DNA of 63,222 nucleotides, the filler included, from a bacterium (lineage in GTDB: Bacteria > JADJOY01): assembly GCA_046331705.1 (NCBI GenBank). It is 3 parts of 3 records of this genome, joined end to end, with 100 filler letters (N's around TTAATTAATTAA, not from the genome) between each part and the next. Parts side by side here need not be neighbours in the genome. Positions count along the whole stretch, not along the records: positions 49,094 to 63,222 come from JAXLQJ010000101.1; 2 more parts are not named here. One strand, 5' to 3'. Each line of letters starts with the position of its first letter. Positions within the stretch are counted from its first letter, which is position 1. This document shows positions 24,491 to 63,222 of the stretch, piece after piece. Below the pieces are notes generated by a model. That model made no database searches and was not told the DNA's origin. It saw nothing but the letters and a program-made list of their open reading frames with translations. The position numbers and the translations under genes were made by a program.

Positions 24491-24590
24491 NNNNNNNNNN
24501 NNNNNNNNNNNNNNNNNNNNNNNNNNNNNNNNNNTTAATTAATTAANNNNNNNNNNNNNNNNNNNNNNNNNNNNNNNNNNNNNNNNNNNN
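24491..24590. other. Artificial contig linker
   Basis: Ns flanking TTAATTAATTAA (stops in all six frames). Genes on both sides are truncated. Confidence 0.97.
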
Positions 24591-47435: not shown

Positions 47436-47507
47436 GAAGTGCCGAGCGCGGCGCCACGCAGCCGTGTGGCGTCGTCTGCCGCCAGCCCGTTCCCTCGCGA
47501 CGACGAC

Positions 47508-48296
47508 ATGGCCGTCCACGATTCGCAGCGCACCCCGCACGACGGCGCGCCGGCGGGGCCGAGCCCGCTCGGAGAGCCGGCGCCTCGCGAGCGGTCGGAG
47601 GTCGGGCCCGACGCGCGAGCCGAGCGGAGCGCGGCGGCAACGTCCCGGCCGTTCGCGGTCAAGGAGATCTACTTCACCCACCAAGGGGAGGGCGCGCACA
47701 CCGGACGCGCGGCGGTGTTCTGTCGATTCTCGGGCTGCAATCTGTGGTCGGGGCGCGAGGACGACCGCGGCGCCGCGCGCTGCGATTTCTGCGACACGGA
47801 CTTCGTCGGTACCGACGGGCCAGGCGGTGGGACGTTCGCGAGCGCGGATGCGCTCGCGGACGCGATCCGCGAGGTGTGGAGCCGCGGCGCGGCAGCGGAT
47901 CGAGCGGCGACCGCGGCGCCGTTCGTGGTGTTCACGGGCGGCGAGCCCGGGCTCCAGCTTCGCGGCGAGCTCGTCGACGCTTGCCACCAGCGCGGCCTCG
48001 AGATCGCCGTCGAGACCAACGGCACGGTGCCGGTGCCGGCGGGCATCGACTGGGTCACCGTGAGCCCCAAGGCGGGAACGAGCCTCGCGATCACCCGTGG
48101 CCAAGAGCTGAAGCTCGTGTGGCCACAGCCGCTCGACCCCGCGTCCTTCGAGTCGCTGGCTTTCGACTGCTTCTTCCTGCAGCCGATGGACGGGCCGGAC
48201 TACGACCGGAACCTGGCGCTCACGTTCGACTACTGCCGCGCGCACCCGCGCTGGCAGCCGTCCATCCAGACCCACAAGTACCTGGGGATCCCGTGA
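47508..48296 (+). CDS. queE: 7-carboxy-7-deazaguanine synthase (radical SAM, CX14CX2C type)
   Basis: VKEIYFTHQGEG, RFSGCNLWSGREDDRGAARCDFCDTDF, TGGEP, ETNG, VSPK and QTHKYLGIP. Start uncertain (47439 or 47508). Confidence 0.93.
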   Translation: MAVHDSQRTPHDGAPAGPSPLGEPAPRERSEVGPDARAERSAAATSRPFAVKEIYFTHQGEGAHTGRAAVFCRFSGCNLWSGREDDRGAARCDFCDTDFVGTDGPGGGTFASADALADAIREVWSRGAAADRAATAAPFVVFTGGEPGLQLRGELVDACHQRGLEIAVETNGTVPVPAGIDWVTVSPKAGTSLAITRGQELKLVWPQPLDPASFESLAFDCFFLQPMDGPDYDRNLALTFDYCRAHPRWQPSIQTHKYLGIP

Positions 48297-48993: not shown

Positions 48994-49093
48994 NNNNNNN
49001 NNNNNNNNNNNNNNNNNNNNNNNNNNNNNNNNNNNNNTTAATTAATTAANNNNNNNNNNNNNNNNNNNNNNNNNNNNNNNNNNNNNNNNNNNN
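48994..49093. other. Artificial contig linker
   Basis: Ns flanking TTAATTAATTAA, identical in design to the first gap. Confidence 0.97.
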
Positions 49094-49415
49094 CCGATGC
49101 GCATGCCGAAGTAGTGGTGCGGCGCCGCCACGCACCACAGTCCGCTCGCGAGCTGCTCGAGTGCCATCTTCCCCTCGGAAGCGATTCGCCTTCAGCGAGT
49201 TGCGCCGTTCGCCGCGATCTTGCTCAAGGAATACGCGCGTTCACAACGTCTACTCGATTCCGCCGATGCGATCCACTACCCGTCCGTAGCTGGATCTCGC
49301 CAGCGCCGAGTCCAACACCGTCACGGGTTCGCGCCGCTCGAGGCGACCGGAACCATCCCCGTTCGGGGTGGTCCGCGAGCGGTGCGCAAGAGGTCGCGAT
49401 ACGGAGGCCTACGCG

Positions 49416-51215
49416 ATGGCTTCATCGCTTCGGGAGTACTTCACCAAGCTGGACACCTCGGGAGACGGCAAGATCTCGCAAGACGAGATCCGCGCGGCGT
49501 TGATCGCCGGGGACCTCGATGTCTCCGACGAGTTCGTGGCGGAGTTGATCAAGGAGTGCGATCAGGACGGCGACGGCCACATCGACTTTCAAGAGTTCGT
49601 CGACGCCTACGCCCGCCAGACCACGCTCGCGGGCCTCGATCTGGCGCAGGCGAAGGCCAACGCCGACTTCGGACCGCGCCTGCACGCGGCGATGGCGCGC
49701 ACGCGCGCCGCAGCGATCAAGTTCGGCGCGCCGGCGCTCGCGGTGCTGGCGCTGGTGGCACTCGTTCGCCCGAGCGCCACCGCGCACTTCTTCGCCAGCA
49801 TCCCGACGGCGGTGTGGGTGCTCTTGGGGCTCGTCGTGGCCGCGCTGGCGGCGGCGATCGTGCTCATGCCGGGCCTCCGGATGGCGGCGGTGTTGCTGGT
49901 TCGTGGCCTCGACGGCTTCCACGCCGCGCACAAGATCGCCCTCGGCCTCGACGCGCCGTTCACCGACCTCGGCACCGGCCGGCTCGGCAAGCCGGCGATG
50001 TACGTCCAGGACGAGCAGCTCGTGGCGCAGGTGCTACGCGCGCCGCAGAAGTACGCGCGGCTTCCGATGGCGAACTACCCGCCGTTCGAGGCGCTCTCCG
50101 AGCTCGGCGCCGGCAGCGGCGAGGAGTGGCTCAAGTACCGCATCGCGTTCAAGGACTACTTCGCGACCGAGTACAAGGAGGACCTCCCCGAGCTGCGCGC
50201 GATCGTCGAGGAGCGCATGCCGGCATGGATCGCCGCCGGCGAGGTGAACCTGCTCGGCGAGCTCTACCGCATCTTGGTCGAGATCCGCGGCCGTCTCTTC
50301 TTCCAGTCGAGCTTCGACTGCTTCGATCCCAATGCGAAGCCCAACTTCGCCGACGAGGTCGACGAGGTGCTGAGCCCGCCGGTGCTGCTCTTCGGCGCCA
50401 ACGACGGCACCGTCGACCTCTTCCACGCGCGCATCCTGAAGGCCATCCGCGCCAGCACCAAGCCGGGATCGGTGGGCCACGTCTGCCGCACGATGCTCGA
50501 GTCGGGCGAGTGGAGTGAGGAGGAAGCGATCCAGAACGGCTCGCTCTTCATGCTCGCGCACGCGCCCACCATGGTGCTCTTCTGGGCCATGTACCGGATC
50601 GCACGCGACGGCACCGGGTCGGCCATGCGGGCGAGCCGCAAGAAGATCCTGCAGGCCCTCAAGGAGGAGATGCGCATCCATCCGGGCGTCCCCACGATGC
50701 TGCCGCGGCTCTCGAAGGAAGAGAACGTGATCGGTCCGATGCGGATCGCGAAGGGCACCACGCTGCTGGTCTCGCCGTACCTGATCCACAACAGCCGCCG
50801 CCACTGGGCGAATCCCGAGAAGTTCGATCCCGAGTGCTGGGAGATCGACGAGAACGACGATCCCCGGGTGCTGGTCGATGGCCGCACCGATCCAGCGGAC
50901 CAGAACCGCCGCCCGTCGGCGTGTCCGTTCCACAAGCTCTTGCCCGACGGCGACGCCAAGCGCGGCGGGCGAGTGCGGTTCCTGCCGTTCGGCGGCGGCC
51001 AGCACCAGTGCCAGGGACGGTGGTTCGCGGCAGACGAGATGTTCGCCGTGGTGCAGTCGATCCTGAAGCACGTGGATCTGGAGGTTGCACCGGGTCAGCG
51101 AGACCTGCTCGGCCGCTCGGTGTGGGACCGGGTGACCCTGCACGTGTACTCGCGGCCGATGAAGGACATCCGGGTGCGCGTCCGGCCGGTCACCAAGGCT
51201 GCGGCCTCGGCATGA
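49416..51215 (+). CDS. EF-hand pair / two TM helices / cytochrome P450 fusion protein
   Basis: GGAGG RBS. EF loops DTSGDGKISQDE and DQDGDGHIDFQE, a hydrophobic hairpin, K-helix EEMR, FDPECW and heme motif FGGGQHQCQG. Confidence 0.88.
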   Translation: MASSLREYFTKLDTSGDGKISQDEIRAALIAGDLDVSDEFVAELIKECDQDGDGHIDFQEFVDAYARQTTLAGLDLAQAKANADFGPRLHAAMARTRAAAIKFGAPALAVLALVALVRPSATAHFFASIPTAVWVLLGLVVAALAAAIVLMPGLRMAAVLLVRGLDGFHAAHKIALGLDAPFTDLGTGRLGKPAMYVQDEQLVAQVLRAPQKYARLPMANYPPFEALSELGAGSGEEWLKYRIAFKDYFATEYKEDLPELRAIVEERMPAWIAAGEVNLLGELYRILVEIRGRLFFQSSFDCFDPNAKPNFADEVDEVLSPPVLLFGANDGTVDLFHARILKAIRASTKPGSVGHVCRTMLESGEWSEEEAIQNGSLFMLAHAPTMVLFWAMYRIARDGTGSAMRASRKKILQALKEEMRIHPGVPTMLPRLSKEENVIGPMRIAKGTTLLVSPYLIHNSRRHWANPEKFDPECWEIDENDDPRVLVDGRTDPADQNRRPSACPFHKLLPDGDAKRGGRVRFLPFGGGQHQCQGRWFAADEMFAVVQSILKHVDLEVAPGQRDLLGRSVWDRVTLHVYSRPMKDIRVRVRPVTKAAASA

Positions 51216-52438
51216 GCACGGGGCTCTCGACGGAAGCGCTGGGGGCGGTCGGCGGCGGCGCTGGAGTGCCACTCGATCGGACGGTCGGCGGCGTCGGCGG
51301 CACGCTCGGCGGGTGGTGGCGCTGGCTCAATCGCGAGCTGCTCTTCGACCGCAACTCGATCATCCACATCGGGATCCTGGCCGCCACCGCGCTCGCGGTC
51401 GCGCGTCTCGGGTGGATCGGGATCCTGCTCTACCCGGTGGTGATGATCACGATCGAGATCCTCCACTACGCGTTCAAGATCTCGCTGTTCGACACCGAGA
51501 CCGTGATCCAGCACGGCTACAACCTGAGCCGGCACATCAGCGACAACCTGCACTCGGGCGGCCTCGACTACGGCTTCAACTTCTACGACGGCGACTTCAC
51601 GAAGACGCGTCAGCAAGCGCAGGAAGACAAGTTTCGCTACGCGTTCGCGCGGCTCGGCCTGCGCCCCGGGATGTCACTGATCGACGTCGGCTGTGGGTGC
51701 GGCGATTGGCTCGATTGGCTGCGTCGCCAGGGCGTGCGCGTGGCGGGGATCAACATCACCGCCGGACAGGCGCACGAGTGCCGTGAGCGCGGGCTGGAGG
51801 TGCATTGCGCGAACTGGAAGGACGTCGCGGCCGATCCCGAGCTCGCGAAGCAGCTCTTCGGACGATTCGACGTGGTCACGTTCTGGGACACCGTCGAGCA
51901 TTACGTGCCGTCCCGCTATCTGAACCGGGTGGGAGAGCGCGATCGCATCTACGGCGCGATGTTCGAGCTCGCCAAGAAGCTCATGCGCGACCCGAACAGC
52001 GGGCGGATCTGGATCTCCTGTCTCCACCGCAAGGATCCGGGGAAGGAGACGCTCCCCGAGTTCCTGCGGCGCCGGACGTATTGCTACCTGCTCGACAAGT
52101 ACCACTCCGGCCTCTACCCGCAGGCGAGCCGAGACGAGCTGGTGCTCAACGCGCGCCGCGCCGGCCTTTCCCTCGTTCACCGTCGCGACACCACCCTCGA
52201 CTACCTGATGACGAGCAGGCTCGAGGCGGCACACTTCGGACGCCACCACTTCGAGCTCACGGCGCGGCGAGCGCTGGTGCTGCTGTGGGAATTGATCGTG
52301 GACCCTTCGTGGTTCCAGGCGCTGCTCTGGTTCAAGCTCGAGATCTGGATGTGGCAGTTCCAGTCCGACGACGTCGAGAAGTCCGACGTCGTGAACTGGT
52401 GGTTGGTGTTCGACGGTGCGCCGGCCGTGCGTGCCTGA
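51212..52438 (+). CDS. SAM-dependent methyltransferase, cyclopropane-fatty-acid synthase (CMAS) family, with N-terminal TM helices
   Basis: ATGA overlap with the P450. QAQEDKF...LGLRPGMSLIDVGCGCG, GINIT..Q and FDVVTFWDTVEH. Confidence 0.85.
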   Translation: MSTGLSTEALGAVGGGAGVPLDRTVGGVGGTLGGWWRWLNRELLFDRNSIIHIGILAATALAVARLGWIGILLYPVVMITIEILHYAFKISLFDTETVIQHGYNLSRHISDNLHSGGLDYGFNFYDGDFTKTRQQAQEDKFRYAFARLGLRPGMSLIDVGCGCGDWLDWLRRQGVRVAGINITAGQAHECRERGLEVHCANWKDVAADPELAKQLFGRFDVVTFWDTVEHYVPSRYLNRVGERDRIYGAMFELAKKLMRDPNSGRIWISCLHRKDPGKETLPEFLRRRTYCYLLDKYHSGLYPQASRDELVLNARRAGLSLVHRRDTTLDYLMTSRLEAAHFGRHHFELTARRALVLLWELIVDPSWFQALLWFKLEIWMWQFQSDDVEKSDVVNWWLVFDGAPAVRA

Positions 52439-52504
52439 TGCAGCGCCATCGGGCCGCCACTCGGTCGCGGAAGCCCGCGCGCGCGGCGTGCCAACGGAGA
52501 GGAC

Positions 52505-53530
52505 ATGCGTAAACGGGTGTCGTGGATGTTCGCCGCCGTGCTGCTGGGCGCGATCGGCGTGCTGGTCGTCTATCACCGCGAGCTTCATCCCCCGCACGTC
52601 TTCGCCGGGACGGGTTCGCGCGATGGCGGGTGGGTCGAGGCGCACGTCACGGTGCTCGCGGTGGAGCCCGAGAAGGAAGACCTGCGCATGCGCATCGCGC
52701 TGACGCCCCACGGACGGCTCGACGCCGGCGCCGGCGTGCCGAGCGAGACGATTCGCATTCACGCCGACGCGGTCGGGTGGGAGGAGGTGGACCTGGCGGC
52801 GCGTAGACGCATCGTGCCACGCGATCTGACCCTCGATCTCACCGAGGGCGAGCCCACCGACTACCCGTTCGACCGCTACCGCGCCCAGCTCGATTTCCTC
52901 GCCGAGGTCGGGGAAGGGGATGCGGCGTACCCGATCCCCGTGGACGTGCGCTTCGACGATTCGCACCACGGCTTTCGCTTCGAGACCGCGGCGCGACCGG
53001 CCGACGGCGCGGGCTACGGCGGCTTCGCTCTCGAGCTGCGCCGCTCGCCGCTGGTGCTCGGCATGGCGCTCTTCCTCATGGGGATCACGTGGGGCGTGAC
53101 GTTCGTGGCGCTGCGGCTGCTCGCGATCGTCATCGAGGGCCGCATCCGCGTCGACGTGGACGTCTTCGTCGCCTTCAGCGGTCTGGTCGTCGCGATGTAC
53201 TTCTTCCGCTCGGTGCTTCCGGAGCTGCCACCGATCTCGGGCACGCTCGCCGATTTCCTGGCGTTCCTGTGGGCCGAGGCGGCGTCGGCGCTCGGCGTGG
53301 TGGTGGTCGGGATCCTCTGGCTGGTCCACGCTCGGCCAGGTCAACCGTCCCCCGAGACGGTGGACGACGGCGCCGACGAGCCCGCGGCAGAGCGGCGCGC
53401 GCCGCGATCGCATGCGCTCACCGCTCCCGCCGCGTGCCCTCCGGCGCTCCGGGATCGGCTGCGTGCCTGGCGGCCGCTGCGCGGTCGGAACGTCGGGCGC
53501 CCGCGGCCGAGCGCGGCGCACGACGCCTGA
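52505..53530 (+). CDS. DUF4436-like membrane protein, paralog 1
   Basis: GGAGAGG RBS, N-terminal TM, GEPTDYPFDRY and three C-terminal TMs with FRSVLPELPPISGTLADFLAFLW. Confidence 0.75.
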   Translation: MRKRVSWMFAAVLLGAIGVLVVYHRELHPPHVFAGTGSRDGGWVEAHVTVLAVEPEKEDLRMRIALTPHGRLDAGAGVPSETIRIHADAVGWEEVDLAARRRIVPRDLTLDLTEGEPTDYPFDRYRAQLDFLAEVGEGDAAYPIPVDVRFDDSHHGFRFETAARPADGAGYGGFALELRRSPLVLGMALFLMGITWGVTFVALRLLAIVIEGRIRVDVDVFVAFSGLVVAMYFFRSVLPELPPISGTLADFLAFLWAEAASALGVVVVGILWLVHARPGQPSPETVDDGADEPAAERRAPRSHALTAPAACPPALRDRLRAWRPLRGRNVGRPRPSAAHDA

Positions 53531-53536
53531 GGAACC

Positions 53537-54406
53537 GTGGCTACGTCTGACGCGCAGGTGCGACGACCACGGACGGGCTTCGGGTGGCTCCTCGCGGCTC
53601 CCGTGCTGGGTTGCCTGGTGGTGGTCGCCTCGTACCATCGCGAGCTTCGACCTCCCACACGGCTCACGGCGGCTGGCTCGCGCGACGCCGGCTGGCTCGA
53701 TGCCCACGTGTCCGTGCTCGCCGTGACTCCCGAGCACGAGGAGCTCAGGCTGCGGATCTCGATCACGCCGCACGGACGGCTCGATCGGGGCGCGGGAGTG
53801 CTGAGCCGGGTCGTCCGCTTGCACGCGGACGCCGTCGGGTGGGACGAGGTGGAGCTCGCTGCCGGCCGGCGCATCTTCCCGCGGGATCTCACGCTCGATC
53901 TCACGGACGGCGAGCCGGTCGACTATCCGTTCGACCGCTACCGCGCGGAGCTCGATCTGCTCGCCGAGGTCGACGTCGAGGGCGGCACGGTGGCGGTGCC
54001 CGTCGACATCACGTTCGACGACAGCCACCACGGCTTTCGCTTCACGACCTCGTCGCTGGCGGTCGACGACGACGGCTACGGCGGCTTCGACGTCGAGCTG
54101 CGTCGGTCCGGCGTGGTTCTCGGGCTGGCGATCTTCCTGATGATGCTCGCGTGGGGCGTGAGCTACGTGTCGCTGCGGCTCTTGAGCTTGGTTCTGGAAG
54201 GCACGATCGAAGTCAATCTCGACATGTTCGTGGCGTTCACGGGGCTCTTGGTGGGGATGTATTTCTTCCGCTCGGTGCTGCCCGAGGTGCCGCCCATCTC
54301 CGGGACGCTCGCCGATTTCCTCGCCTTCCTGTGGGCGGAGATCACCGCCGCGCTCGGTACGGTGGCCGTCGGAGTCATCTGGACGCGGCGCGCGGAGAAG
54401 CCGTAG
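53537..54406 (+). CDS. DUF4436-like membrane protein, paralog 2
   Basis: Colinear and highly similar to paralog 1 (GEPVDYPFDRY, FRSVLPEVPPISGTLADFLAFLW). Starts 6 nt after its stop. Confidence 0.75.
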   Translation: MATSDAQVRRPRTGFGWLLAAPVLGCLVVVASYHRELRPPTRLTAAGSRDAGWLDAHVSVLAVTPEHEELRLRISITPHGRLDRGAGVLSRVVRLHADAVGWDEVELAAGRRIFPRDLTLDLTDGEPVDYPFDRYRAELDLLAEVDVEGGTVAVPVDITFDDSHHGFRFTTSSLAVDDDGYGGFDVELRRSGVVLGLAIFLMMLAWGVSYVSLRLLSLVLEGTIEVNLDMFVAFTGLLVGMYFFRSVLPEVPPISGTLADFLAFLWAEITAALGTVAVGVIWTRRAEKP

Positions 54407-54467
54407 CGAGCTTGTCGCCCGCGACCCGCGGCGCCGGGAATCGTGCCGGCCGCCACCGCGTCGCGGC

Positions 54468-55232
54468 TCATCGCGCGCCGTGCGCTCGGGCGACGAGCGA
54501 TACCGCGACTTCCAGGAAGCGCTCGGGCGGCAGCCGCTCACTCAGGACCTGGAGCTGCCCCCCGCGCGTGGCGAGCTGGTCGTCGAACGCGGCATGGCCG
54601 GCACGTCGGCCCAGCTCGGCGAGCAACGCCGCGAAGTTGCCCGCGCGCGTTTGCTGCATCGCCGCGCCCAGGCCGCGATAGCGAAGCTCGTCCGCCGGCA
54701 GATCCACCGGCGGGCGCCCGAACGAGAAGAGCCGGGCAAAGAGGGCACGGTCCTCCTCGGTGCGCGTGGTGGTCGCCTGAACCTTCTTGGTGAACGCCAG
54801 GCCGCCGGTGACCAACGCCTTGCCGACGCTGAGCACGCGCTCGTTGCTGGTGTCGGTGCGGGTGCTTTGCACGATTCGGAGACCGCGCACCACGAGGCGG
54901 ACGGCTTCGTAGGGAATTCCGATTCCGCCGCTGCCACTCGTTTGGACCTCGAACGACGCCTCGTGGAGCTCGAACGCGACCGCGGCCACCGTCTCGGCCT
55001 GGTCACGTTGGACCTCGTCCATGCCGAGCACGAACGCGGCGAATCCCCGCGCGCTCAAGGCTGCTCGCGCACGCTCCGCCTGGTCGCGATCGGCATGAAT
55101 CGCGAGCACCCGCGGACCCGCTCCGTGAAGGCGGCCGCGCGCCTCCGTGACCGAGATGCCGAGCACGCCGGCGAGTGCCGCCGCGGGGTCGGCGGTGTGC
55201 GTCGACGCGTCGCGCAGGGCGAGGACGTTCAT
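54468..55232 (-). CDS. Hypothetical protein
   Basis: Protein-like composition from MNVLALRD. LSVGKALVTGGL and LRYRGLG motifs. No family recognised. Confidence 0.65.
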   Translation of the reverse strand: MNVLALRDASTHTADPAAALAGVLGISVTEARGRLHGAGPRVLAIHADRDQAERARAALSARGFAAFVLGMDEVQRDQAETVAAVAFELHEASFEVQTSGSGGIGIPYEAVRLVVRGLRIVQSTRTDTSNERVLSVGKALVTGGLAFTKKVQATTTRTEEDRALFARLFSFGRPPVDLPADELRYRGLGAAMQQTRAGNFAALLAELGRRAGHAAFDDQLATRGGQLQVLSERLPPERFLEVAVSLVARAHGAR

Positions 55233-55332
55233 CCGAAGACCTTCGTCGGCGCGATTCGAGCAACGCAGCGTGAGCGGCGTTCCCGGCGGAGCCGGCCTGG
55301 AGCGGCTGGCACGCGCCGGGCGGGGCCAGCGT

Positions 55333-55821
55333 TCAGGGAATCGTGTAGCGGCCCTTCCAGTCGGACCAGCCGGCGCCGGTGGTACCGATGAAGTTGCCCT
55401 GGAACTTCTGATCGCCGGTGATTCCTGCGTATTTCCCGGTCCCGCCGACGAACTTCTCGTCGCCGGGACAGGCCGGCATCGTGCCCGTGCACTTCCACTC
55501 GACGAAGACCTTGTCGCCGTCTCCATCCGTGACCACGCACGTGCCGTTGGCCGTCGCCTGTCCTTGCTTGACGTCGTTCATCAGTGCGCAATCCACGCGC
55601 GCCTTGTGCAGGAAACCCTTGCCGGCGTCGTTGAACATGACGCCGGACACCATGCCCGTGGAGATCGACCGATCGGGCCCCAGATCCTGGACGTCCCCCT
55701 TGAACACCCAGCCGAAGTGTCCGGAGTAGTTGCCCGTCTTCGGCAGCTCGGCCGCGGCAGCCGACGACACGGCGGCGAGCGCGGAAAGCAGCAGAGCGAC
55801 CATGCGGGTTCCTGGGCTCAT
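55333..55821 (-). CDS. Secreted beta-barrel protein (dirigent/allene-oxide-cyclase-like motif)
   Basis: Signal peptide, GTCVVTDGDGDKVF and FVGGTGKYAGITG. GGAG RBS. Confidence 0.7.
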   Translation of the reverse strand: MSPGTRMVALLLSALAAVSSAAAAELPKTGNYSGHFGWVFKGDVQDLGPDRSISTGMVSGVMFNDAGKGFLHKARVDCALMNDVKQGQATANGTCVVTDGDGDKVFVEWKCTGTMPACPGDEKFVGGTGKYAGITGDQKFQGNFIGTTGAGWSDWKGRYTIP

Positions 55822-56262
55822 CGGTGTTCTCCGTGCGATCGGATGTGGGAACCCGTCGTCGAGCCCGGGACCCGAGTTGGAGCCGACTCTACCCGTTCTC
55901 GGGAGCGAGCGGTGCGGTCCCGTGCGGCTTCGTCGGTGCGCGGTGCGCGAAGGCGCTACGCGGCTGGCGGACTGCGCGCCGTTGCGATCGAGCGTCGGTC
56001 GAGTCTGCAGCCGGCGGGGCACCGCCTCGAGGAGGACGAGGCGGCGGGGCTGACATACTGGGTCGTGCGTGGTCGCAAGCCCCGCGACCGACGCGAGGAT
56101 GGAATGGGGCGGTGCGAGCTCGGTCGCCCAGGATTGCGGCCACCGCGCCGGCAGTCGTCCCGCTAGCCCAAGAGAGTCCGGCAACGACGCGGAATTCCGC
56201 GCGCCTCATCGTCCTGCGCAGAACGTGCGCCGCCACCGAGCGCTCCCCGAGAAACCGCCGAC

Positions 56263-57276
56263 ATGCAAACGCCCACCAGCAGTCCCGTTCCCATGACGAT
56301 CCTCACTGGTTTTCTGGGGGCGGGGAAGACGACGCTCTTGAACCGCATCCTGAACGGCGACCACGGTCTGCGGGTGGCGGTGCTGGTGAACGACTTCGGC
56401 GCCATCAACATCGACGCGGAGCTGGTCATCGGCGTCCAGGACGACGTCGTCAGCCTGGCGAACGGCTGTGTCTGCTGCACGATCCGCGACGATCTGGTCG
56501 AGACGGTCGAAGCGGTCCTGAAGCGTCCCGAAGCCCCCGAGTACATCCTGCTCGAAGCGAGCGGCGTCTCGGACCCGGCGGGCCTGGTCACGACGTTTCT
56601 CGATCCCAAGCTCGAGAGTCGGATCCGGTTGGACAGCGTCACGTGCGTGCTGGATGCGGATCAGCTGTTCGCTCACCGCAAGCGGCGCGAGCTGATGATG
56701 CTCAAGCTCAATCAGATCGGTTTCTCGGATCTGTTGATCCTCAACAAGGTCGATCTCGCAGGGCCGGACGAGACCGCGAACGTGAGGGAGTGGCTCGAGC
56801 GGAGCTTCCCCCGGATTCGGATCGTCGAGGCCAACCATTGCGACGTGCCGCTCGAGATCTTGCTGGCGGTGGGGCGCTTCGACCCGGCTCGCGGCGGCCT
56901 CGAGAAACCACCCGCCCACGATGGCGCCTGCGCGGATTCGAGCTGTCACGACGAGCACCACGGCCACGATCACGCAAACGCGTTCGGCACCTGGAGCTAC
57001 GAGACCAACCAACCAATGTCGCTCGAGGCCGTGCGTGAGGCCGTCCGAACGCTCCCTGGCAACATCTACCGTGCCAAGGGGGTGATCTACACCTCCGACG
57101 ATCCCGAGCGTCCGTTGGTGCTCCAGGTCGTCGGCAGGCGCGTCAACCTGTCGACGCAGGCCGAATGGGGGCCGCGCGCGCCGCGCTCCCAGATCGTCGT
57201 CATCGGTGCCGCCGGAAGCCTCGATGAGCGCTCGCTGGCTCTGACGTTCGATTCGTGCCGCACCGCCGTCGCGTGA
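56263..57276 (+). CDS. COG0523/CobW-family metallochaperone GTPase
   Basis: GFLGAGKTT, NDFG, NGCVCC, EASG, NKVD, a His-rich insert and YRAKG. Confidence 0.93.
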   Translation: MQTPTSSPVPMTILTGFLGAGKTTLLNRILNGDHGLRVAVLVNDFGAINIDAELVIGVQDDVVSLANGCVCCTIRDDLVETVEAVLKRPEAPEYILLEASGVSDPAGLVTTFLDPKLESRIRLDSVTCVLDADQLFAHRKRRELMMLKLNQIGFSDLLILNKVDLAGPDETANVREWLERSFPRIRIVEANHCDVPLEILLAVGRFDPARGGLEKPPAHDGACADSSCHDEHHGHDHANAFGTWSYETNQPMSLEAVREAVRTLPGNIYRAKGVIYTSDDPERPLVLQVVGRRVNLSTQAEWGPRAPRSQIVVIGAAGSLDERSLALTFDSCRTAVA

Positions 57277-57682
57277 TCGCGATGCGCCTCGCGGCGAGGC
57301 GTGCATGGGCACGGCGCGCGCGTGTCCTGGCAGGCGCCCGACGGCTTCGTGGTGAACGGACGCGCTGGGCTCGGCTGGAAGCCGCGGAGCGGCACCGCCG
57401 GGCCCGGCGACGAGCGCGCGCGCACGATCCCCGGCACCGACCCGTTCGGGGATGGCTTGCTCGCGACCACGCTCACGGGGACCGCCGTGGGAGCGATCGC
57501 GTACGAGCCGACGAGTGTCGTTCCTCCCGGGGGCGGGACCGATCGGGTCATCGAGGGCGAGTGGACCGAGAGAGGCCGTATCGGGATCTGGGCGTGCTCC
57601 GATCCAGCGCTCGATTCGCTCTCCGTGCGGTCGCGTCGCGCACGGCAAGAACGGCCTGGGTGGCTGCCGCGCGCGACTCGGT

Positions 57683-58159
57683 TCAGCCCGCGCGTGTCCT
57701 GCGCGCGCGCCGTCGGGCCGGCTGGGCTGGTGGCGCGCTCTCGGTTCGCGCCGCGGCTGCGGTGCGCGCGCGGAACCACGCGGCAATTCCGGGCATGTGC
57801 GGCTCGAAGTCGCCGGGCACCGAGACGTTGAGCGCACCTGCGGGCTCTGCGGTGCGGTTCTCGAAGTCGTGGGGCGTCCCGCCGGGCGCGATCACCACCG
57901 ATCCCGCGGGCGCGTCGAGCCACGCGCCGTCCACATGGAAGCTCATCGTCCCCGCGATGACGAAGAAAACGTCGTCTTCGTCGTGGGTGTGCGCGCCGGG
58001 GCCACGTGTGTAGGGCTCGAGCCACCACTCGGAGATCGAGTACCGCTTGTGGGTCTCGTCGCCGTTGGCCTTGAAGACCGCGCGCACCGGGCCCATCGCA
58101 TACGCGCGCCCAGCGCCAGGCGGCAACACGATCGCAGCGCGCTTTCCGCGGGGTGCCAT
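57683..58159 (-). CDS. Cupin-domain protein
   Basis: GPGAHTHDEDDVFFVIAG and APGGTPHDFEN. Start re-set to MAPRGKR. Confidence 0.82.
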   Translation of the reverse strand: MAPRGKRAAIVLPPGAGRAYAMGPVRAVFKANGDETHKRYSISEWWLEPYTRGPGAHTHDEDDVFFVIAGTMSFHVDGAWLDAPAGSVVIAPGGTPHDFENRTAEPAGALNVSVPGDFEPHMPGIAAWFRARTAAAARTESAPPAQPARRRARRTRAG

Positions 58160-58401
58160 GGCACACGAAAGCTGGCCACTTCGCGGAATCGTCGCCAGCG
58201 CAGCGGCCATTTCCTGGGTGCAGCGTCCCCGCGCAACTCGTGGCGAGGCGAGCGGCGCGGAAGAGGTGAGTGGAGGGGGTGCGGAAGAGGGCGGAGGTTC
58301 AGCGTGGACTGCGGCTCGACTGGTGCGCACTTCGAGCGATGGTCTCGCTCTGCGCGACACGTTTCGTCCCGCCCGAGGCTCTCGAGCGGCGGCGCGCAGG
58401 C

Positions 58402-58554
58402 TCATTGCACGAGGCCGACGAGCAGCCCGCCAGCAGCGCCAGCGACAACGAACAGAAAGATGACGCCGGACGCGGCGATCGCGGCGATCGTGGCGAGCGC
58501 GATCAGCAGCACCGTCGCGTGCTCATGCGCTGACGTGCGACGAAGACGACTCAC
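58402..58554 (-). CDS. Small (50 aa) hydrophobic membrane peptide
   Basis: Manual translation MSRLRRTSAHEHATVLLIALATIAAIAASGVIFLFVVAGAAGGLLVGLVQ. Starts 5 nt after the Sel1 gene stop. Confidence 0.45.
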   Translation of the reverse strand: MSRLRRTSAHEHATVLLIALATIAAIAASGVIFLFVVAGAAGGLLVGLVQ

Positions 58555-58559
58555 ACGTT

Positions 58560-58940
58560 CTACCGCGAGCTGAGAATGGCCCGATAGTCGCTAGTCGCCC
58601 AAGACTCTGGGATCTGCCCTGCGGTGACCATCTCGAGGAGTCGTGCGCAGGCGTCGCGTGTTCCATCCGTGCACGCGAGGTTGTAATACGAGACGGCTCG
58701 GTGAAGATCCGGTGCGGCGTCGACGCCGCGCTCGAAGACTTGTCCGACAGCGAAGCAACTGGAGTTGTCGACGTGCTCGCAGCGATGGATCCGTGCGGCG
58801 AGCGATGGCGACGTCAGATACCACCCGAGGGTCATCAGCGCGATCGTGAAGCTGAGCGCGAGGCCGATGCCGACGAGCAGCCCGACACGCGCCGCAACCT
58901 TCAGCGCTCGATTCGGTGAAGCCCGTACCTGCGTGCTCAC
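58560..58940 (-). CDS. Membrane-anchored Sel1-like repeat protein
   Basis: TM helix, then SCFAVGQVFERGVDAAPDLHRAVSYYNLACTDG..DAC. Confidence 0.75.
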   Translation of the reverse strand: MSTQVRASPNRALKVAARVGLLVGIGLALSFTIALMTLGWYLTSPSLAARIHRCEHVDNSSCFAVGQVFERGVDAAPDLHRAVSYYNLACTDGTRDACARLLEMVTAGQIPESWATSDYRAILSSR

Positions 58941-59009
58941 GGAGAGGTCGCCGTGGTTACGCCTTCGGTGGCCGCGCCGAGGGACGCGGCGCGAGCGCGG
59001 TACGTGGCC

Positions 59010-59927
59010 TCACGGCCCGTTGGTGACTCGATACGACCAGCGAGCCGGTGCGCTCTGCCGCCCCGTCGAGTCTTCGAGGTAGATGTCGCGCGAAAGCACC
59101 TGATCCGAACACTCGGTGCCGGGTGTGGGATCGCACGGTTTGAAGTTCTTGCAGAACTCGTAGGTGCCGCTCGTCTCTCCACGCAGGCCTGGATCGAAGT
59201 CCGTCGGGCTGATCGGACACGACTGGCCCGTCCGCGTGTTCACGCACGTTTCGTTGCGCGTGAACAAGCGATCGATGTCTCCGTTCGGGTCCGCGTAGCG
59301 AACGTCGACGCACGTGGGGTGATAACCGCTCCCGTCGGGGAACGTGAACACGGACTGCGAATGAAGAGAGAGGATGGCGGGCGCTTCGGCAGGTGGCGGC
59401 GGCGGAGGAGGCGGTGGCTCGGGGGTTGGGGGTTGCTCTGGCGTGGGTGTGATGCCGTCGGAGACTTGGAACGCCCAGTGGAAGGAGGGGCTGGTCAGGC
59501 CCGCTCCATCGCGCACTCGAACGTCCATCTCGTATCGCACCTCGGCACAGGGACCGGGCGCCGAACACTGCTTGTACGACACGCAGAATGAGAACCCGCC
59601 GCTGGGCTGTCCGTCGATGCCAGGATTGAAGTTCGCCTTCAGCGCATTGCAGCTCGGCGTCGACTCGACCGGCACGCACGACTCGTTCTCCGAGAACGCG
59701 GCCTCGATATCCCCGTCAGGATCGACGAACGAGACCGCTGCGCAAAGCGGAACGGTGGTCCCGGGCGTGACCGTGAACGTGCTCGGCCCTTGAAAGCCGA
59801 CGATGAGGGGAGGCGACGGTGCCGGCGGTTCGGGGGGCGCGGCGTCCGAGCCACCGCTGCCGCCGCACGCAGCTCCGAGCCCGAACAGGATCGCGACCAT
59901 CCATTTCTTCGATCCGCTCGCCGTCAT
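59010..59927 (-). CDS. Lipoprotein with two tandem Cys-rich beta-sandwich-like domains
   Basis: Lipobox-like LGAAC, Pro-rich linkers and an internal duplication (DPDGDI/DPNGDI). Confidence 0.75.
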   Translation of the reverse strand: MTASGSKKWMVAILFGLGAACGGSGGSDAAPPEPPAPSPPLIVGFQGPSTFTVTPGTTVPLCAAVSFVDPDGDIEAAFSENESCVPVESTPSCNALKANFNPGIDGQPSGGFSFCVSYKQCSAPGPCAEVRYEMDVRVRDGAGLTSPSFHWAFQVSDGITPTPEQPPTPEPPPPPPPPPAEAPAILSLHSQSVFTFPDGSGYHPTCVDVRYADPNGDIDRLFTRNETCVNTRTGQSCPISPTDFDPGLRGETSGTYEFCKNFKPCDPTPGTECSDQVLSRDIYLEDSTGRQSAPARWSYRVTNGP

Positions 59928-60339
59928 CGCGTGTCTCCGTGAATGAGCGGCCGCGGAACGACCGCACGGAAAGCCGAATCTGTCGTAAGTGCTGTCATCC
60001 AGGCCGGGCGTGCGCGCGTTTCACAACCCCCCGCAACGGCAGCGCAGGCGCTCGCATCGCGCATGGTGCCAGAGATCGCGAGCTCGCGACAAGGTAGATA
60101 CTATTGCCAGTGCGACTAGGTCGCGTCCGGTCGCGGATCGTCGCCGGACCTGGCCGCCGCTTCTCGCCGGATCGGCGAGCTGGGTGCGACGTTCTGCGTC
60201 GAACGTGCATCGCGGTGCTCCCCAGACCTGACGCAACCGCGACTCTCGCGAGCTCGATCTCGACGACGTCACCACGGGGCCAGGCGAGCACGGCGATGCT
60301 GGTCCGCGAGCAGCTCGATCGGGGGGAGGAGGCTCGATC

Positions 60340-61026
60340 TCACAACCACGCGTAAGCGCGGCGCAGCACGTTGCATCCGTCGTGTTCGACGAGGGCCCCG
60401 TGGGCGAGCGCGATCCGCTCGGGACGCCACGCAATCATCCGGTCCACCTGGGCGCGCGCCGCGAGCCGGTCGCGCATGATCACGTGCTCGAGCCACGTGG
60501 CACCCGGTTGGCGATTGGCGAGCAGGAGCGCCGCGAGTCGCGTCGCACGCGACGGATGTTCGGCCAAGTTGAAGATCAGGTCGGCGCAGATCAGCGTGCT
60601 GCTCGAACGATAGAAGAACACCACCTCGTTCTCGAGCCAGCGCGCCCCGAAGAACACCTGCTCGATCTCGCCGCGCCACGGCTCCTCCGGCTCGTCGCCG
60701 AGAACCCCGCGCCACGGAAGATCGCGCCGCTTGTGCTCGAGCCCGGGACACGCCCACGCCTTCGCCTCGGGATAGGCACGGATCCACTCACCCACGAAGA
60801 GATGGTGAAAGCGGCTCGGCGCCACGACCGCCTTCACCGGACCAAGGGCTTCGATCGCCGCCTTCGTGCTGGGGTCGAGCGCCACCGGCGAGTGCACGAA
60901 GAGGCCGCCGTGTCCGAGCCGCACGACCGTCATCCGCGTGCCGGTGTCGACGCCCCAGAAACGGAGCGGTCGATGGGCCAACCAGACGTTCTCCGCGAAT
61001 GGATGAAGCACGACTGCTGCCGTCAT
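60340..61026 (-). CDS. DUF4336-family protein (metallo-beta-lactamase-like fold)
   Basis: TRMTVVRL..GGLFVHSP, VAPSRFHHLF, EVVFF, TLICADL and AHG. Confidence 0.85.
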   Translation of the reverse strand: MTAAVVLHPFAENVWLAHRPLRFWGVDTGTRMTVVRLGHGGLFVHSPVALDPSTKAAIEALGPVKAVVAPSRFHHLFVGEWIRAYPEAKAWACPGLEHKRRDLPWRGVLGDEPEEPWRGEIEQVFFGARWLENEVVFFYRSSSTLICADLIFNLAEHPSRATRLAALLLANRQPGATWLEHVIMRDRLAARAQVDRMIAWRPERIALAHGALVEHDGCNVLRRAYAWL

Positions 61027-61487
61027 GGCGCCATTGTCCGCCGACCCAACGGGGTGCGTCCAACGTCGGTGGTTGGTCCCGCGACCCGCGCGGGAGCTCA
61101 AGAGCTTTGCGCGTGAGAGAGTCGCGTGCGGCGCGCGGTGCCCCGCAGCGCATGGCATCCGTGACGATCCCCTGACGCCGCCGCCCGAGGCGGCGCAACA
61201 CCACCTCGCACATGCGCGCCGGGTCGAAGGGGCCGAGCTTCGGCGCCTCGACGATCGACGACGAGAATCCCGAGTGGTGCGTCCGCGAGCGATGGATGCT
61301 GGCCGAAGCGGCGCAAGTCCTGTCGTCGTTCATCGACCTCGGGCTCGAACGGGTCGTGGCGGTGTCCGCGGCATCGTCATGCCCTTGCGCGGCGATTCGA
61401 GTGCCGTAGGATGCAAACAAGCACACGGACGCAGGGTTCGGTGCAGGGCCTACTGCCCCTTCGGAATCCTCATCGGACGCCATCATC

Positions 61488-62531
61488 GTGAATCAGACCA
61501 CGGGGCACGAGGCGCTGCACCAGCCGTCCGTGCATCGCGACACGATTCGTCGGTGGGCGAGGGCTGTCGTGTTGGTGGGCGACGTGCTGCTGGTCGTTGG
61601 TTCGGTGGCAATGCTCGCGCAGAGCCTGGGCTGGGTAGCCGACGCGCTCTCGCCAGCCACGTTCGTGGCCGCTCTGGTGGCCTTCCCTTGCGTCCTCACC
61701 GGCCTCTTCGTGCTGGGTCTGCTTCGCATCACGATTCGCTCACGACTGGCCCTTGTGATCTCAGCCATCGCATACATCGCAGTCACGCTCGGGCTCTGGG
61801 CGGTCGCCACGGCGTTGCTGTTGCCGGTTGCGTATCCAGGAGTCGCGATCGCGGCTGCAGCGTTGCTCGTGCTCGAAGCACGCACCGCGCAGCGTTCGAT
61901 CCCAGCAGTGAGCGGAGCGAAGCGACGTTGGTCGGCTGTCTCGATCGCGCTGATCTCGGTCGCGCCTCTGCTTGCGTTTGCGATCGTCGCGCTGTTCCTC
62001 AACAGCCGAGCGGAAAGGGAGATCCACCTGATCCCCGATGGCTACGTCGGTCCCGTGCTGATCGTCTTCGGTGTGAAGGACGCTGGTCTGCCCGAGTACG
62101 AGCGAGGCGCGCGGGTGTATCGCATCGGTGCGGATGGCACGGCGCGCACTCGGCTGCCGTCCAACCCTGGAATTCAGCGTGATCGGTTCTTCTACGCAGA
62201 CGTAGCGACCGGCACGGTCCGATCCGAGATCAAAGGACGCTCTTACAGCACGATTCACGATGATCCGCGGACGATGGCGGATCCGGAAGTCGTCGTCCAC
62301 GGGGGTGGACTCGGTGTGACCACTGTCCCGGGTGTGCATTTCTACGAAAACGGACGCGAGGTGTCGAGCAGCGACCTACCGTGCGCGGTTCGGTTTCAGC
62401 AGTACTTCGTGGGTCGACGGTCGGACATCATTCACATGAGCCGGCACGACGTGAGCGCTTACCTCGCGGAGCACCGAGTCGGGTGCGGCGCAACTGCCGT
62501 ATCGGAATTGCAGGCTGTATACAGCGATTGA
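61488..62531 (+). CDS. Multi-TM membrane protein with a C-terminal DUF6843-like domain
   Basis: About five TM helices, then EIHLIPDGYVGPVLIVF...GLPEYERGARVYRI. Confidence 0.6.
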   Translation: MNQTTGHEALHQPSVHRDTIRRWARAVVLVGDVLLVVGSVAMLAQSLGWVADALSPATFVAALVAFPCVLTGLFVLGLLRITIRSRLALVISAIAYIAVTLGLWAVATALLLPVAYPGVAIAAAALLVLEARTAQRSIPAVSGAKRRWSAVSIALISVAPLLAFAIVALFLNSRAEREIHLIPDGYVGPVLIVFGVKDAGLPEYERGARVYRIGADGTARTRLPSNPGIQRDRFFYADVATGTVRSEIKGRSYSTIHDDPRTMADPEVVVHGGGLGVTTVPGVHFYENGREVSSSDLPCAVRFQQYFVGRRSDIIHMSRHDVSAYLAEHRVGCGATAVSELQAVYSD

Positions 62532-62630
62532 CCGCCGCACGGGCGGAACGCCGCTCAAGAATTGGAGTCTCCGGAAAACCCGGGGCGGTTCACTTTTCGA
62601 ATTCTACCATAGTACCATCAAGGAACTTCC

Positions 62631-63222
62631 ATGAAGCTGGAAACTCGATGTTGCGATCTTTTCGCCGTTTCTGCGCTTCTACTCGCTGGCTGCGGCCTGT
62701 CCGTCAGCTCAATCAGCCCGGGGTCCGCACCGGTGGGGATGACGGTGACAATCGCTGGCTTAGGATTTGGCAGCGCTCAGGGATCGAGCAGGGTTCTCTT
62801 TGACGGTATCGATGCCGGATCCGCTCTCGCGTGGTCGGGCGCGTCCATCCAGATCGCCGTGCCGCCCGGTGCGAAGACCGGACCCGTGACCGTAAAGGTT
62901 GGGTCCGCGACGAGCTCTGCCTATCCATTCGTCGTGTCAGATCCGCGCCTCGCGCAGGTTCGCGTGGCAACGGAGATTCAGTGCTCACAGTCGCTTTCGA
63001 GCGTGGGAGCGAGTGTCGCCAGCCAGCGATCGCTCGCCCTCGGCGATCTCAATCGCGACGGCTATCCGGACATCGTCTACAACGGTGGGGGCACCGGGGA
63101 GTCGGTCTGCCGGTATCTGGGTGATGCAAGTGCCTTGTTTCTGGACTTCGCCTGTTTTCCCAGTGGATCCGACGCTCAGGCGGGCATGGCGGTTGGGCAG
63201 TTCAATGGAGATCCCTTTCCGG
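62631..63222 (+). CDS. Lipoprotein with an IPT/TIG domain and FG-GAP/VCBS repeats (runs off the window)
   Basis: Manual translation: AAGGA RBS, lipobox LAGC, ISPGSAPVGMTVTIAGLGFG...WSGASIQIAVPPGAKTGPVTV, LALGDLNRDGYPDIV and MAVGQFNGDPFP. Absent from the ORF track. Confidence 0.82.
   Translation, partial: MKLETRCCDLFAVSALLLAGCGLSVSSISPGSAPVGMTVTIAGLGFGSAQGSSRVLFDGIDAGSALAWSGASIQIAVPPGAKTGPVTVKVGSATSSAYPFVVSDPRLAQVRVATEIQCSQSLSSVGASVASQRSLALGDLNRDGYPDIVYNGGGTGESVCRYLGDASALFLDFACFPSGSDAQAGMAVGQFNGDPFP

Follow-up and report, generated by a model that had tools for sequence, protein, structure and literature searches.

Can a bacterial cytochrome P450 be placed under the direct control of a second messenger by a sensor that resides in the same polypeptide chain? 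This question is raised by a gene at positions 49416-51215 (plus strand) of a 63,222-nucleotide (nt) stretch of bacterial DNA (lineage JADJOY01, GenBank assembly GCA_046331705.1), which is referred to as the window in the following. The reading frame is open without a stop codon, and its translation yields a protein of 599 amino acids (aa; P0001), in which a calmodulin-like pair of EF-hands is followed by a hairpin of two hydrophobic helices and a P450 domain. Our preferred reading, to which we assign a probability of roughly 50%, is that this protein is a membrane P450 gated in cis by a second messenger, with the EF pair sensing Ca2+ and a lipid-like molecule as the probable substrate; it draws on sequence features and on analogy to known systems. 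New are a rare family of EF-hand P450s with a basal EF form, a derived clade carrying cyclic-nucleotide-binding (cNMP) and BFD-type domains, and, in the lineage of the window, a CMAS-type methyltransferase gene that is coupled to the P450 gene through an ATGA overlap.

The window consists of three concatenated contigs, the joins of which take the form N-run, TTAATTAATTAA, N-run (spacer letters at 24535-24546 and 49038-49049), and the contig that carries the gene begins at 49094, with the start codon 322 nt further on. Therefore, the possibility that the fusion is an assembly chimera deserved testing. Metagenome contig L028 spans the whole gene: over 49094-51455 it is 98.98% identical to the window at the DNA level (24 mismatches in 2362 nt), with ten synonymous and two non-synonymous differences within the gene, and it extends 1375 nt further upstream than the window contig. 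At least half of the words sampled from 49100-52500 occur in 17 of the 24 public sequencing runs listed; the labels of these 17 read activated sludge, sludge, wastewater or anaerobic digester, and in one case only 'metagenome'. Some part of this interval is present in 20 rows, which come from 13 studies. When the contigs of four of the 24 runs were compared with the stretch, a single contig of 4192 nt from run X6 covered 49203-52500 gap-free, and contigs from runs X9 (49544-50166) and X4 (49190-49839) bridged the junctions between EF pair, transmembrane (TM) segments and P450 domain. Thus, other data sets contain sequence across every junction, including the one from the P450 gene to its downstream neighbour. 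Moreover, full-length homologues sit on long contigs (150 kb and 284 kb).

The alternative that the gene is a decaying pseudogene is opposed by the open frame and by the ratio of non-synonymous to synonymous substitution rates (dN/dS), as calculated by the Nei-Gojobori method for the window and its homologue at locus L001. This ratio is 0.089 for residues 1-70 (EF part), 0.105 for residues 71-165 (linker and TM segments) and 0.073 for residues 166-599 (P450), and ~0.08 overall; hence, purifying selection acts on all three modules. In the wastewater metatranscriptome run X18, contigs match 50463-50723, 51428-51659 and 51971-52121 with zero to two differing letters. These three contigs, of 151-261 nt, lie on the P450 and the CMAS-type gene and may provide a hint of expression, with DNA carry-over being possible. 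Taken together, a chimera was rejected on the L028 contig plus those of X6, X9 and X4, and the interval between EF, TM and P450 parts, for which the first-pass annotation of this DNA had demanded spanning reads, is crossed by contigs of other metagenomes. A chimeric or decaying gene is thus very improbable. The start Met is the same in the homologues at L001 and L028.

The N-terminal module was assigned to the Pfam family EF-hand_7 (PF13499; residues 4-65, E 1.6e-15, 57.6 bits as compared to a cut-off of 30). A canonical EF loop comprises 12 residues with ligands at positions 1, 3, 5, 9 and 12, Gly at position 6 and a hydrophobic residue at position 8. Both DTSGDGKISQDE and DQDGDGHIDFQE conform to this pattern, and they are spaced by 36 residues, so that the two canonical loops (residues 13-24 and 49-60) that had been read from the sequence by eye are borne out by pattern check and Pfam alike. 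The best solved-structure match of residues 4-64 is the C-lobe of calmodulin (residues 84-145, E ~1e-17), with the difference that P0001 possesses one lobe only. Downstream of the EF pair, hydropathy analysis confirmed the two proposed TM helices, with Kyte-Doolittle means over 19 aa of 2.2 (residues 99-117) and 2.85 (residues 133-151). Four Lys/Arg residues precede helix 1 and three follow helix 2, while the 12-residue loop in between is uncharged and holds none. By the positive-inside rule, the EF pair and the P450 would, given these positively charged flanks, share the cytoplasmic side of the membrane, which supports the arrangement that the first-pass annotation had suggested.

What kind of P450 is attached to this module? 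The Pfam model p450 (PF00067) matches residues 413-562 only (E 6.6e-25, 88.2 bits as compared to a cut-off of 22.8), that is the part from the K-helix to the Cys ligand in the C-terminal third. For this part, the sequence profile matches E-class P450s at E ~1e-19, and residues 165-420 alone gave no solved-structure sequence match up to E 10. According to profile alignment and structure prediction, the whole domain, beyond the part aligned by Pfam, is a complete but divergent P450. Profile-profile alignment (hhalign) to eight canonical P450s covers residues 188-565 in 332 columns, with a probability of 99.9 and E 2.7e-32. The AlphaFold2 (AF2) model, which had been called for at the outset, has a mean per-residue confidence (pLDDT) of 84.5, falling below 50 at residues 69-73 and 501-518 only, and a predicted TM-score (pTM) of 0.87; it displays the complete P450 fold. 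Its superposition on solved P450s by VIA-align gave Z scores of 33-37 and root-mean-square deviations of 2.3-2.9 A over 348-392 residues (model range 151-598), the Foldseek TM-scores by target were 0.61-0.70, and the model of the ESM Atlas agrees with the P450 fold (TM-score 0.79).

The structural neighbours found by Foldseek and VIA-align are E-class (class II-like) enzymes, namely CYP175A1, CYP46A1, CYP102A1 (heme domain), CYP97 (CYP97A3/C1) and CYP120A1 as the closest, as well as CYP3A (CYP3A4/5) and CYP17A1; such neighbours act on sterols, carotenoids, retinoids and fatty acids. P0001 shares with them the complete fold, the ExxR motif and the FxxGxHxCxG pocket, and both motifs lie where the first-pass annotation had located them. 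However, identity amounts to 14-21% only, the I-helix is acid-free and has an invariant Pro, the meander carries an insert of ~25-40 residues, and the protein is anchored by a two-helix hairpin following the EF-hand pair rather than by a single signal-anchor helix. In the Cys pocket, F525, G526, G528 and C532 are invariant in 14 sequences and the spacing is canonical. The I-helix motif of the family reads L-A-[H/Q/L]-A-P-[T/S], with A381, A383 and P384 invariant in the 14 members aligned. Neither Asp nor Glu occurs in this motif in any of the 14, and the typical (A/G)Gx(D/E)T(T/S) signature with its acid-alcohol pair is absent, as had been noticed for P0001 itself. In the AF2 model the I-helix is broken at 381-382, and hhalign puts A383 on the acid and P384 on the conserved Thr of the acid-alcohol pair.

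A CPFH motif had been pointed out in the meander insert. It is indeed present at residues 503-506, but it was ruled out as a family motif, being not conserved across the family and deleted in the cNMP clade. A related pattern, [S/A/G]-C-P-[F/V/A/Y/M]-[H/A/Q/N], recurs at residue 503 of P0001, 25 and 470 of P0009, 14 of P0010, 488, 510 and 521 of P0011, and 478 of P0012; copies are located in the meander insert, the short forms have one at their N-terminus, and the linker of P0011 contains three. This short recurrent motif resembles Cys-Pro heme-regulatory motifs.

The fusion is not confined to the window. A word-indexed search returned full-length proteins with EF and P450 parts at 93%, 41% and 39% identity, and an exhaustive search of 1.84 billion representative proteins returned 24 proteins at E <=1e-30, of which 15 are members of this P450 family and nine are long proteins with EF repeats whose similarity is restricted to the EF part. 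The family is rare, amounting to 15 clusters (50% identity) in the set of 1.84 billion proteins. Likewise, a search of genome contigs returned 20 loci, including four close family members (L001-L004). Among 401 genomes sampled from the phylum to which one homologue belongs, two have a match at E <=1e-40; of the five genomes in the small phylum of the 93% homologue, three have a match. Both EF loops are canonical in all seven EF forms examined (P0001, P0002, P0003, P0157, P0004, P0007 and P0182); P0003 and P0157, which share one cluster at 90% identity, have Arg instead of Gly at position 6 of loop 1. Two hydrophobic segments are present in 12 of the 13 family proteins examined, the exception being P0008 (430 aa). 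Relatives at 39-42% identity are full-length and retain the EF-hands and the entire architecture, so the fusion is real and conserved among the full-length homologues, the occurrence of which had been in question. Neither the P450 nor the CMAS-like and DUF4436 proteins encoded downstream reach the cut-off of any NCBIfam family. A full-text search of the literature other than subscription journals and supplementary files found no description of a P450 fused to EF-hands or to a cNMP-binding domain. The annotation in databases is automatic and reads 'cytochrome P450' or 'CRP-like cAMP-binding protein/cytochrome P450/bacterioferritin-associated ferredoxin'.

In a sister clade, a different N-terminus precedes the hairpin and P450 domain known from P0001 (31-42% identity to the query). 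Nine proteins of 985-1283 aa are built in this way, namely P0011-P0015 and those encoded in L024, L025, L030 and L031, each with one to three cNMP_binding stretches and, in eight cases (not in L030), also a Fer2_BFD domain. The CxC...CxxC cysteines of a BFD-type [2Fe-2S] domain are present in all five cNMP forms examined. Between the BFD domain and the hairpin, the cNMP forms have retained a segment that can be aligned to the EF pair, in which the loops have degenerated: loop 1 is canonical in one of five and loop 2 in none. A maximum-likelihood tree was calculated from the last 440 residues of 22 rows, without P0051, which forms a long branch, and without the fragments P0016-P0018 and P0022. 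In this tree the family is separated from the outgroup with a support of 100/99, and the EF forms are basal, P0182 with its two canonical loops branching first. The nine cNMP forms group with P0008, in which the N-terminal sensor part is missing, in a single clade (99/97) that is nested among the basal EF forms. The simplest history suggested by these sequences is that EF pair, hairpin and P450 are ancestral, that the module of cNMP and BFD domains was gained once, and that the Ca2+ ligands then decayed. A class III cyclase gene (FHA-GAF-adenylate/guanylate-cyclase) adjoins the cNMP form in L024 and L025, and no cyclase was seen in the available flanks of L026 (=L032), L030 and L031. Together with the cNMP domains themselves, this adjacency indirectly supports control by second messengers. 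The nearest P450s outside the family (P0118, P0029, P0050, P0051 and P0178; 19-26% identity) have an x-[T/A]-P I-helix and long meander inserts as well; the source recorded for P0118 is the protist Mucochytrium quahogii.

The coordinates of the gene, its parts and the neighbouring features are compiled in the following table.

Table 1. Features of the EF-hand P450 locus in the window and positions of cNMP forms at other loci (locus handle before the colon)
Feature	Position	Strand	Basis or remark
Contig-join spacer (N-run, TTAATTAATTAA, N-run)	48994..49093	.	second such spacer at 24535
GGAGG Shine-Dalgarno-like site	49403..49407	+	8 nt 5' of ATG at 49416
EF-hand pair + TM hairpin + P450 gene (P0001, 599 aa)	49416..51215	+	translation, Pfam, homologues, AlphaFold2
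EF-hand pair domain, residues 4-65	49425..49610	+	Pfam EF-hand_7; canonical loops; calmodulin C-lobe match
EF loop 1, residues 13-24, DTSGDGKISQDE	49452-49487	+	canonical pattern
EF loop 2, residues 49-60, DQDGDGHIDFQE	49560-49595	+	canonical pattern
Hydrophobic helix 1, residues 99-117	49710..49766	+	hydropathy; AF2 model helix 85-117
Hydrophobic helix 2, residues 133-151	49812..49868	+	hydropathy; AF2 model helix 131-150
P450 catalytic domain, residues ~165-599	49908..51212	+	hhalign, VIA-align, ESM Atlas
I-helix motif LFMLAHAPTMVLFW, residues 377-390	50544..50585	+	alignment, hhalign, AF2 model
K-helix ExxR, E417-E-M-R420	50664..50675	+	sequence; E417, R420 invariant
Meander insert, residues ~479-518	50850..50969	+	low model confidence at 501-518
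CPFH motif, residues 503-506	50922-50933	+	within meander insert
Cys pocket F525-G-G-G528-Q-H-Q-C532-Q-G534 (heme thiolate ligand C532)	50988..51017	+	sequence
CMAS-type S-adenosylmethionine (SAM) methyltransferase, 408 aa	51212..52438	+	Pfam CMAS E 6e-15
DUF4436 protein a, 341 aa	52505..53530	+	Pfam E 1.4e-30; kept in L001, L002
DUF4436 protein b, 289 aa, paralogue of preceding gene	53537..54406	+	Pfam E 1.7e-28; kept in L001
cNMP form	L024:6404-10255	-	FHA-GAF-cyclase gene adjoining
cNMP form	L025:8387-11344	+	FHA-GAF-cyclase gene adjoining
cNMP form	L026:5998-9246	+	relative with cNMP-binding, BFD, degenerate EF pair, hairpin, P450
cNMP form	L030:4102-7296	+	BFD-type domain not detected
cNMP form	L031:3955-7515	+	relative with cNMP-binding, BFD, degenerate EF pair, hairpin, P450

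Downstream, the TGA of the P450 gene overlaps the ATG of the methyltransferase gene (ATGA at 51212-51215), and two DUF4436 genes follow. Conservation of this four-gene set extends to L001, with 83% DNA identity over 5.3 kb, and to L002, the methyltransferase gene being present in both. The methyltransferase is only distantly related to the cyclopropane (CFA) and mycolic-acid synthases of solved structure (E 1e-7), and a hydrophobic stretch near its N-terminus was noticed by eye only. The tandem DUF4436 membrane-protein genes are 76-79% identical to their counterparts in L001. A divergent DUF4336 gene lies upstream in L001 and L028, a FadL-like gene (below the Pfam cut-off) near the homologue in L001, and an SCP2 gene near the homologue in L003. 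There is no neighbourhood conserved throughout the family, the neighbours in L003, L004, L026, L030 and L031 being unrelated. Owing to the contig joins, genes upstream of 49094 are not neighbours of the P450 gene and gene order across the joins is meaningless; this applies to an open reading frame (ORF) at 47439-48296 (plus strand) of the preceding contig, by eye a putative QueE-type radical-SAM enzyme, which is unrelated to the P450 gene. A scan of 49094-54700 for promoters and terminators revealed no promoter-like site and one terminator-like site, located inside the P450 gene, at a chance expectation of 1.5. That the enzyme modifies lipids, as the first-pass annotation proposed, is weakly suggested by the ATGA-coupled CMAS-type gene of this one lineage, the membrane anchor and the lipid-acting structural neighbours, with the SCP2 and FadL-like genes near two homologues as further hints.

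How could the parts work together? In the mechanism that we propose, binding of Ca2+ would alter the EF pair, and this change would gate either substrate access or electron delivery to the heme. There is precedent for such gating in the action of Ca2+/calmodulin on nitric-oxide synthase (NOS) and of the EF domain in NOX5. Electrons would be provided by a separate ferredoxin in the EF form and by the built-in [2Fe-2S] domain in the cNMP form, and the substrate would be a lipid of the membrane or some other hydrophobic compound. In the lineage of the window, a lipid-tailoring operon may be formed by the P450 together with the CMAS-type methyltransferase, to which it is coupled in translation, and the pair of DUF4436 membrane proteins. 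More tentatively, the sequences allow the proposal that the entire family consists of P450s gated in cis, by Ca2+ in the ancestral EF form and by cAMP or cGMP in the derived clade with its built-in [2Fe-2S] domain, and that these enzymes make or destroy a membrane-lipid signal or modify lipids on demand.

Several observations speak against gating by Ca2+ and against lipid tailoring as formulated here. The Ca2+ dependence is proposed from loop sequences and analogy, and the short forms P0009 and P0010 are devoid of EF loops, so a recognisable sensor is not obligatory for the P450. The only hint in the model as to the placement of EF pair and P450 relative to each other is that the pTM of 0.87 exceeds 0.73, the share of residues contributed by the P450 domain. 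The missing acid-alcohol pair could mean a chemistry that proceeds without O2 activation, which would weaken the idea of electron gating; here, the register of the I-helix differs between methods, MAFFT being one or two residues off hhalign, with the acid missing in every register. The linkage to CMAS-type and DUF4436 genes is confined to one lineage (window, L001 and L002, all at least 92% identical), and tblastn, which covered L001-L004 and thereby 4 of the 20 loci, did not find these genes in L003 and L004. Finally, a cyclase gene adjoins the cNMP form in just two of five distinct loci, and the cyclases of L024 and L025 are 85% identical, so that their linkage is not independent.

Alternatively, the EF pair might be a structural, membrane-association or docking module, for instance a fold stabilised by Ca2+ or a clamp that binds a redox partner or neighbour protein, and the P450 would then be constitutively active. 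Retention of the EF scaffold in the cNMP clade in spite of the decayed Ca2+ ligands fits this view, as it implies a Ca2+-independent role of the module, and so does the complete absence of the EF pair from the short forms. However, every canonical ligand position is kept in the seven EF forms across 39-42% identity, with a dN/dS of 0.089 for this part, and another second-messenger sensor was gained where the loops decay, as would be expected if the role is regulatory. We therefore consider a purely structural role unlikely. A complex prediction comprising the EF pair (residues 1-80), the P450 (residues 165-599), heme and two Ca scored 0.00 and 0.01 as compared to a mark of 0.32, which weighs neither way on binding.

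A further alternative, compatible with control by Ca2+, concerns the chemistry: the catalytic domain could use peroxide or lipid hydroperoxides without any redox partner, as a peroxygenase, isomerase or lyase in the manner of CYP74, CYP8A1, CYP5A1 or CYP152. The absence of Asp and Glu from the I-helix motif of 14 members points in this direction, as does the lack of a ferredoxin match on the contig of the 93% homologue. No ferredoxin or reductase was found among the ten larger ORFs scanned on 49094-63222, small ORFs not being in the scan. In the genome of the 93% homologue, the three Fer4_15 and five Fer2 matches all lie off C29, the contig of the P450 gene, yet one ferredoxin match lies ~120 nt from another P450, on contig C9. 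Hence, the earlier remark that no ferredoxin or reductase is adjacent holds for the larger ORFs of the window contig and, as far as ferredoxin matches are concerned, for C29. On the other hand, CYP74-type P450s have an insertion inside the Cys-ligand loop, whereas the pocket of P0001 has canonical spacing without an insertion, its extra residues preceding the pocket in the meander. CYP51 and EryF, which are P450s without the canonical acid-alcohol pair, can still be monooxygenases. CYP152 peroxygenases carry Arg-Pro in place of this pair, as described in PMC5818669. The invariant A383-P384 occupies the same place according to hhalign, with the Pro at the position of the conserved Thr, so that the pair is lost in both. 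However, P0001 has Ala-Pro without the Arg, CYP152 enzymes are soluble and without a sensor domain, and the NCBIfam model for CypC/CYP152 (NF053744) scores 22.7 bits as compared to a cut-off of 600, matching residues 404-495 only. None of CYP74, CYP8A and CYP152 is among the Foldseek and VIA-align matches listed, a relationship still being possible. In the sister clade, a four-Cys BFD-type [2Fe-2S] domain is fused to the same P450 and suggests that electrons are passed to the heme. In the form in which the first-pass annotation put it forward, the idea of a peroxide shunt or isomerase is not supported, and it appears somewhat doubtful; given the fused [2Fe-2S] domain, electron-dependent catalysis seems somewhat more likely than a pure peroxide shunt.

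With gating in cis as the preferred reading, P0001, in which an EF module is linked to a membrane-bound heme oxygenase, invites a functional comparison with heme oxidases known to be regulated by EF-hands, such as NOS with calmodulin, NOX5/DUOX, plant Rboh and caleosin. In caleosin, an EF-hand is followed by a hydrophobic hairpin, and the protein is a heme enzyme that acts on lipids. In contrast to NOX5/DUOX, NOS and caleosin, the catalytic domain of P0001 is a P450, and its control by Ca2+ is a proposal from sequence and analogy. Pfam revealed no ferric-reductase, NOS-oxygenase or caleosin domain in P0001, up to E 1 in the case of NOX5/DUOX and caleosin. P450 fusions are known as well, examples being CYP102A1 (BM3), CYP116B, XplA and the PpoA-type dioxygenase-P450. 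A fusion of CYP51 to a ferredoxin (CYP51fx) is documented in PMC7947880. The accessory domain in one chain is a common trait of all these proteins, and the BFD-type [2Fe-2S] domain of the cNMP clade resembles a fused redox partner. However, the partner in the present family is a signalling sensor, either an EF pair or a cNMP-binding domain, rather than a reductase or a second enzyme. In agreement, P0001 has no Pfam match to FMN-, FAD-, NAD(P)H-binding or phthalate-dioxygenase-reductase domains, and the cNMP forms have only the BFD-type [2Fe-2S] domain.

P450s are normally controlled via gene expression, the supply of redox partner or the supply of substrate. To our knowledge, the fusions known so far join P450s to reductases or to a second enzyme, and if the reading preferred here is correct, this would be the first known case of direct control of a P450 by a second messenger. 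The acid-free I-helix with its invariant proline marks a divergent catalytic clade, a trait that is shared with P450s of marine protists. The organism recurs in activated-sludge metagenomes, and material for cloning is therefore accessible. The targets of Ca2+ signalling in bacteria are poorly known; if Ca2+ indeed gates this enzyme, it would provide bacterial Ca2+ signalling with a concrete, testable output. If the family makes or destroys lipid signals on demand, it would represent a bacterial counterpart of the Ca2+-triggered synthesis of lipid mediators in eukaryotes.

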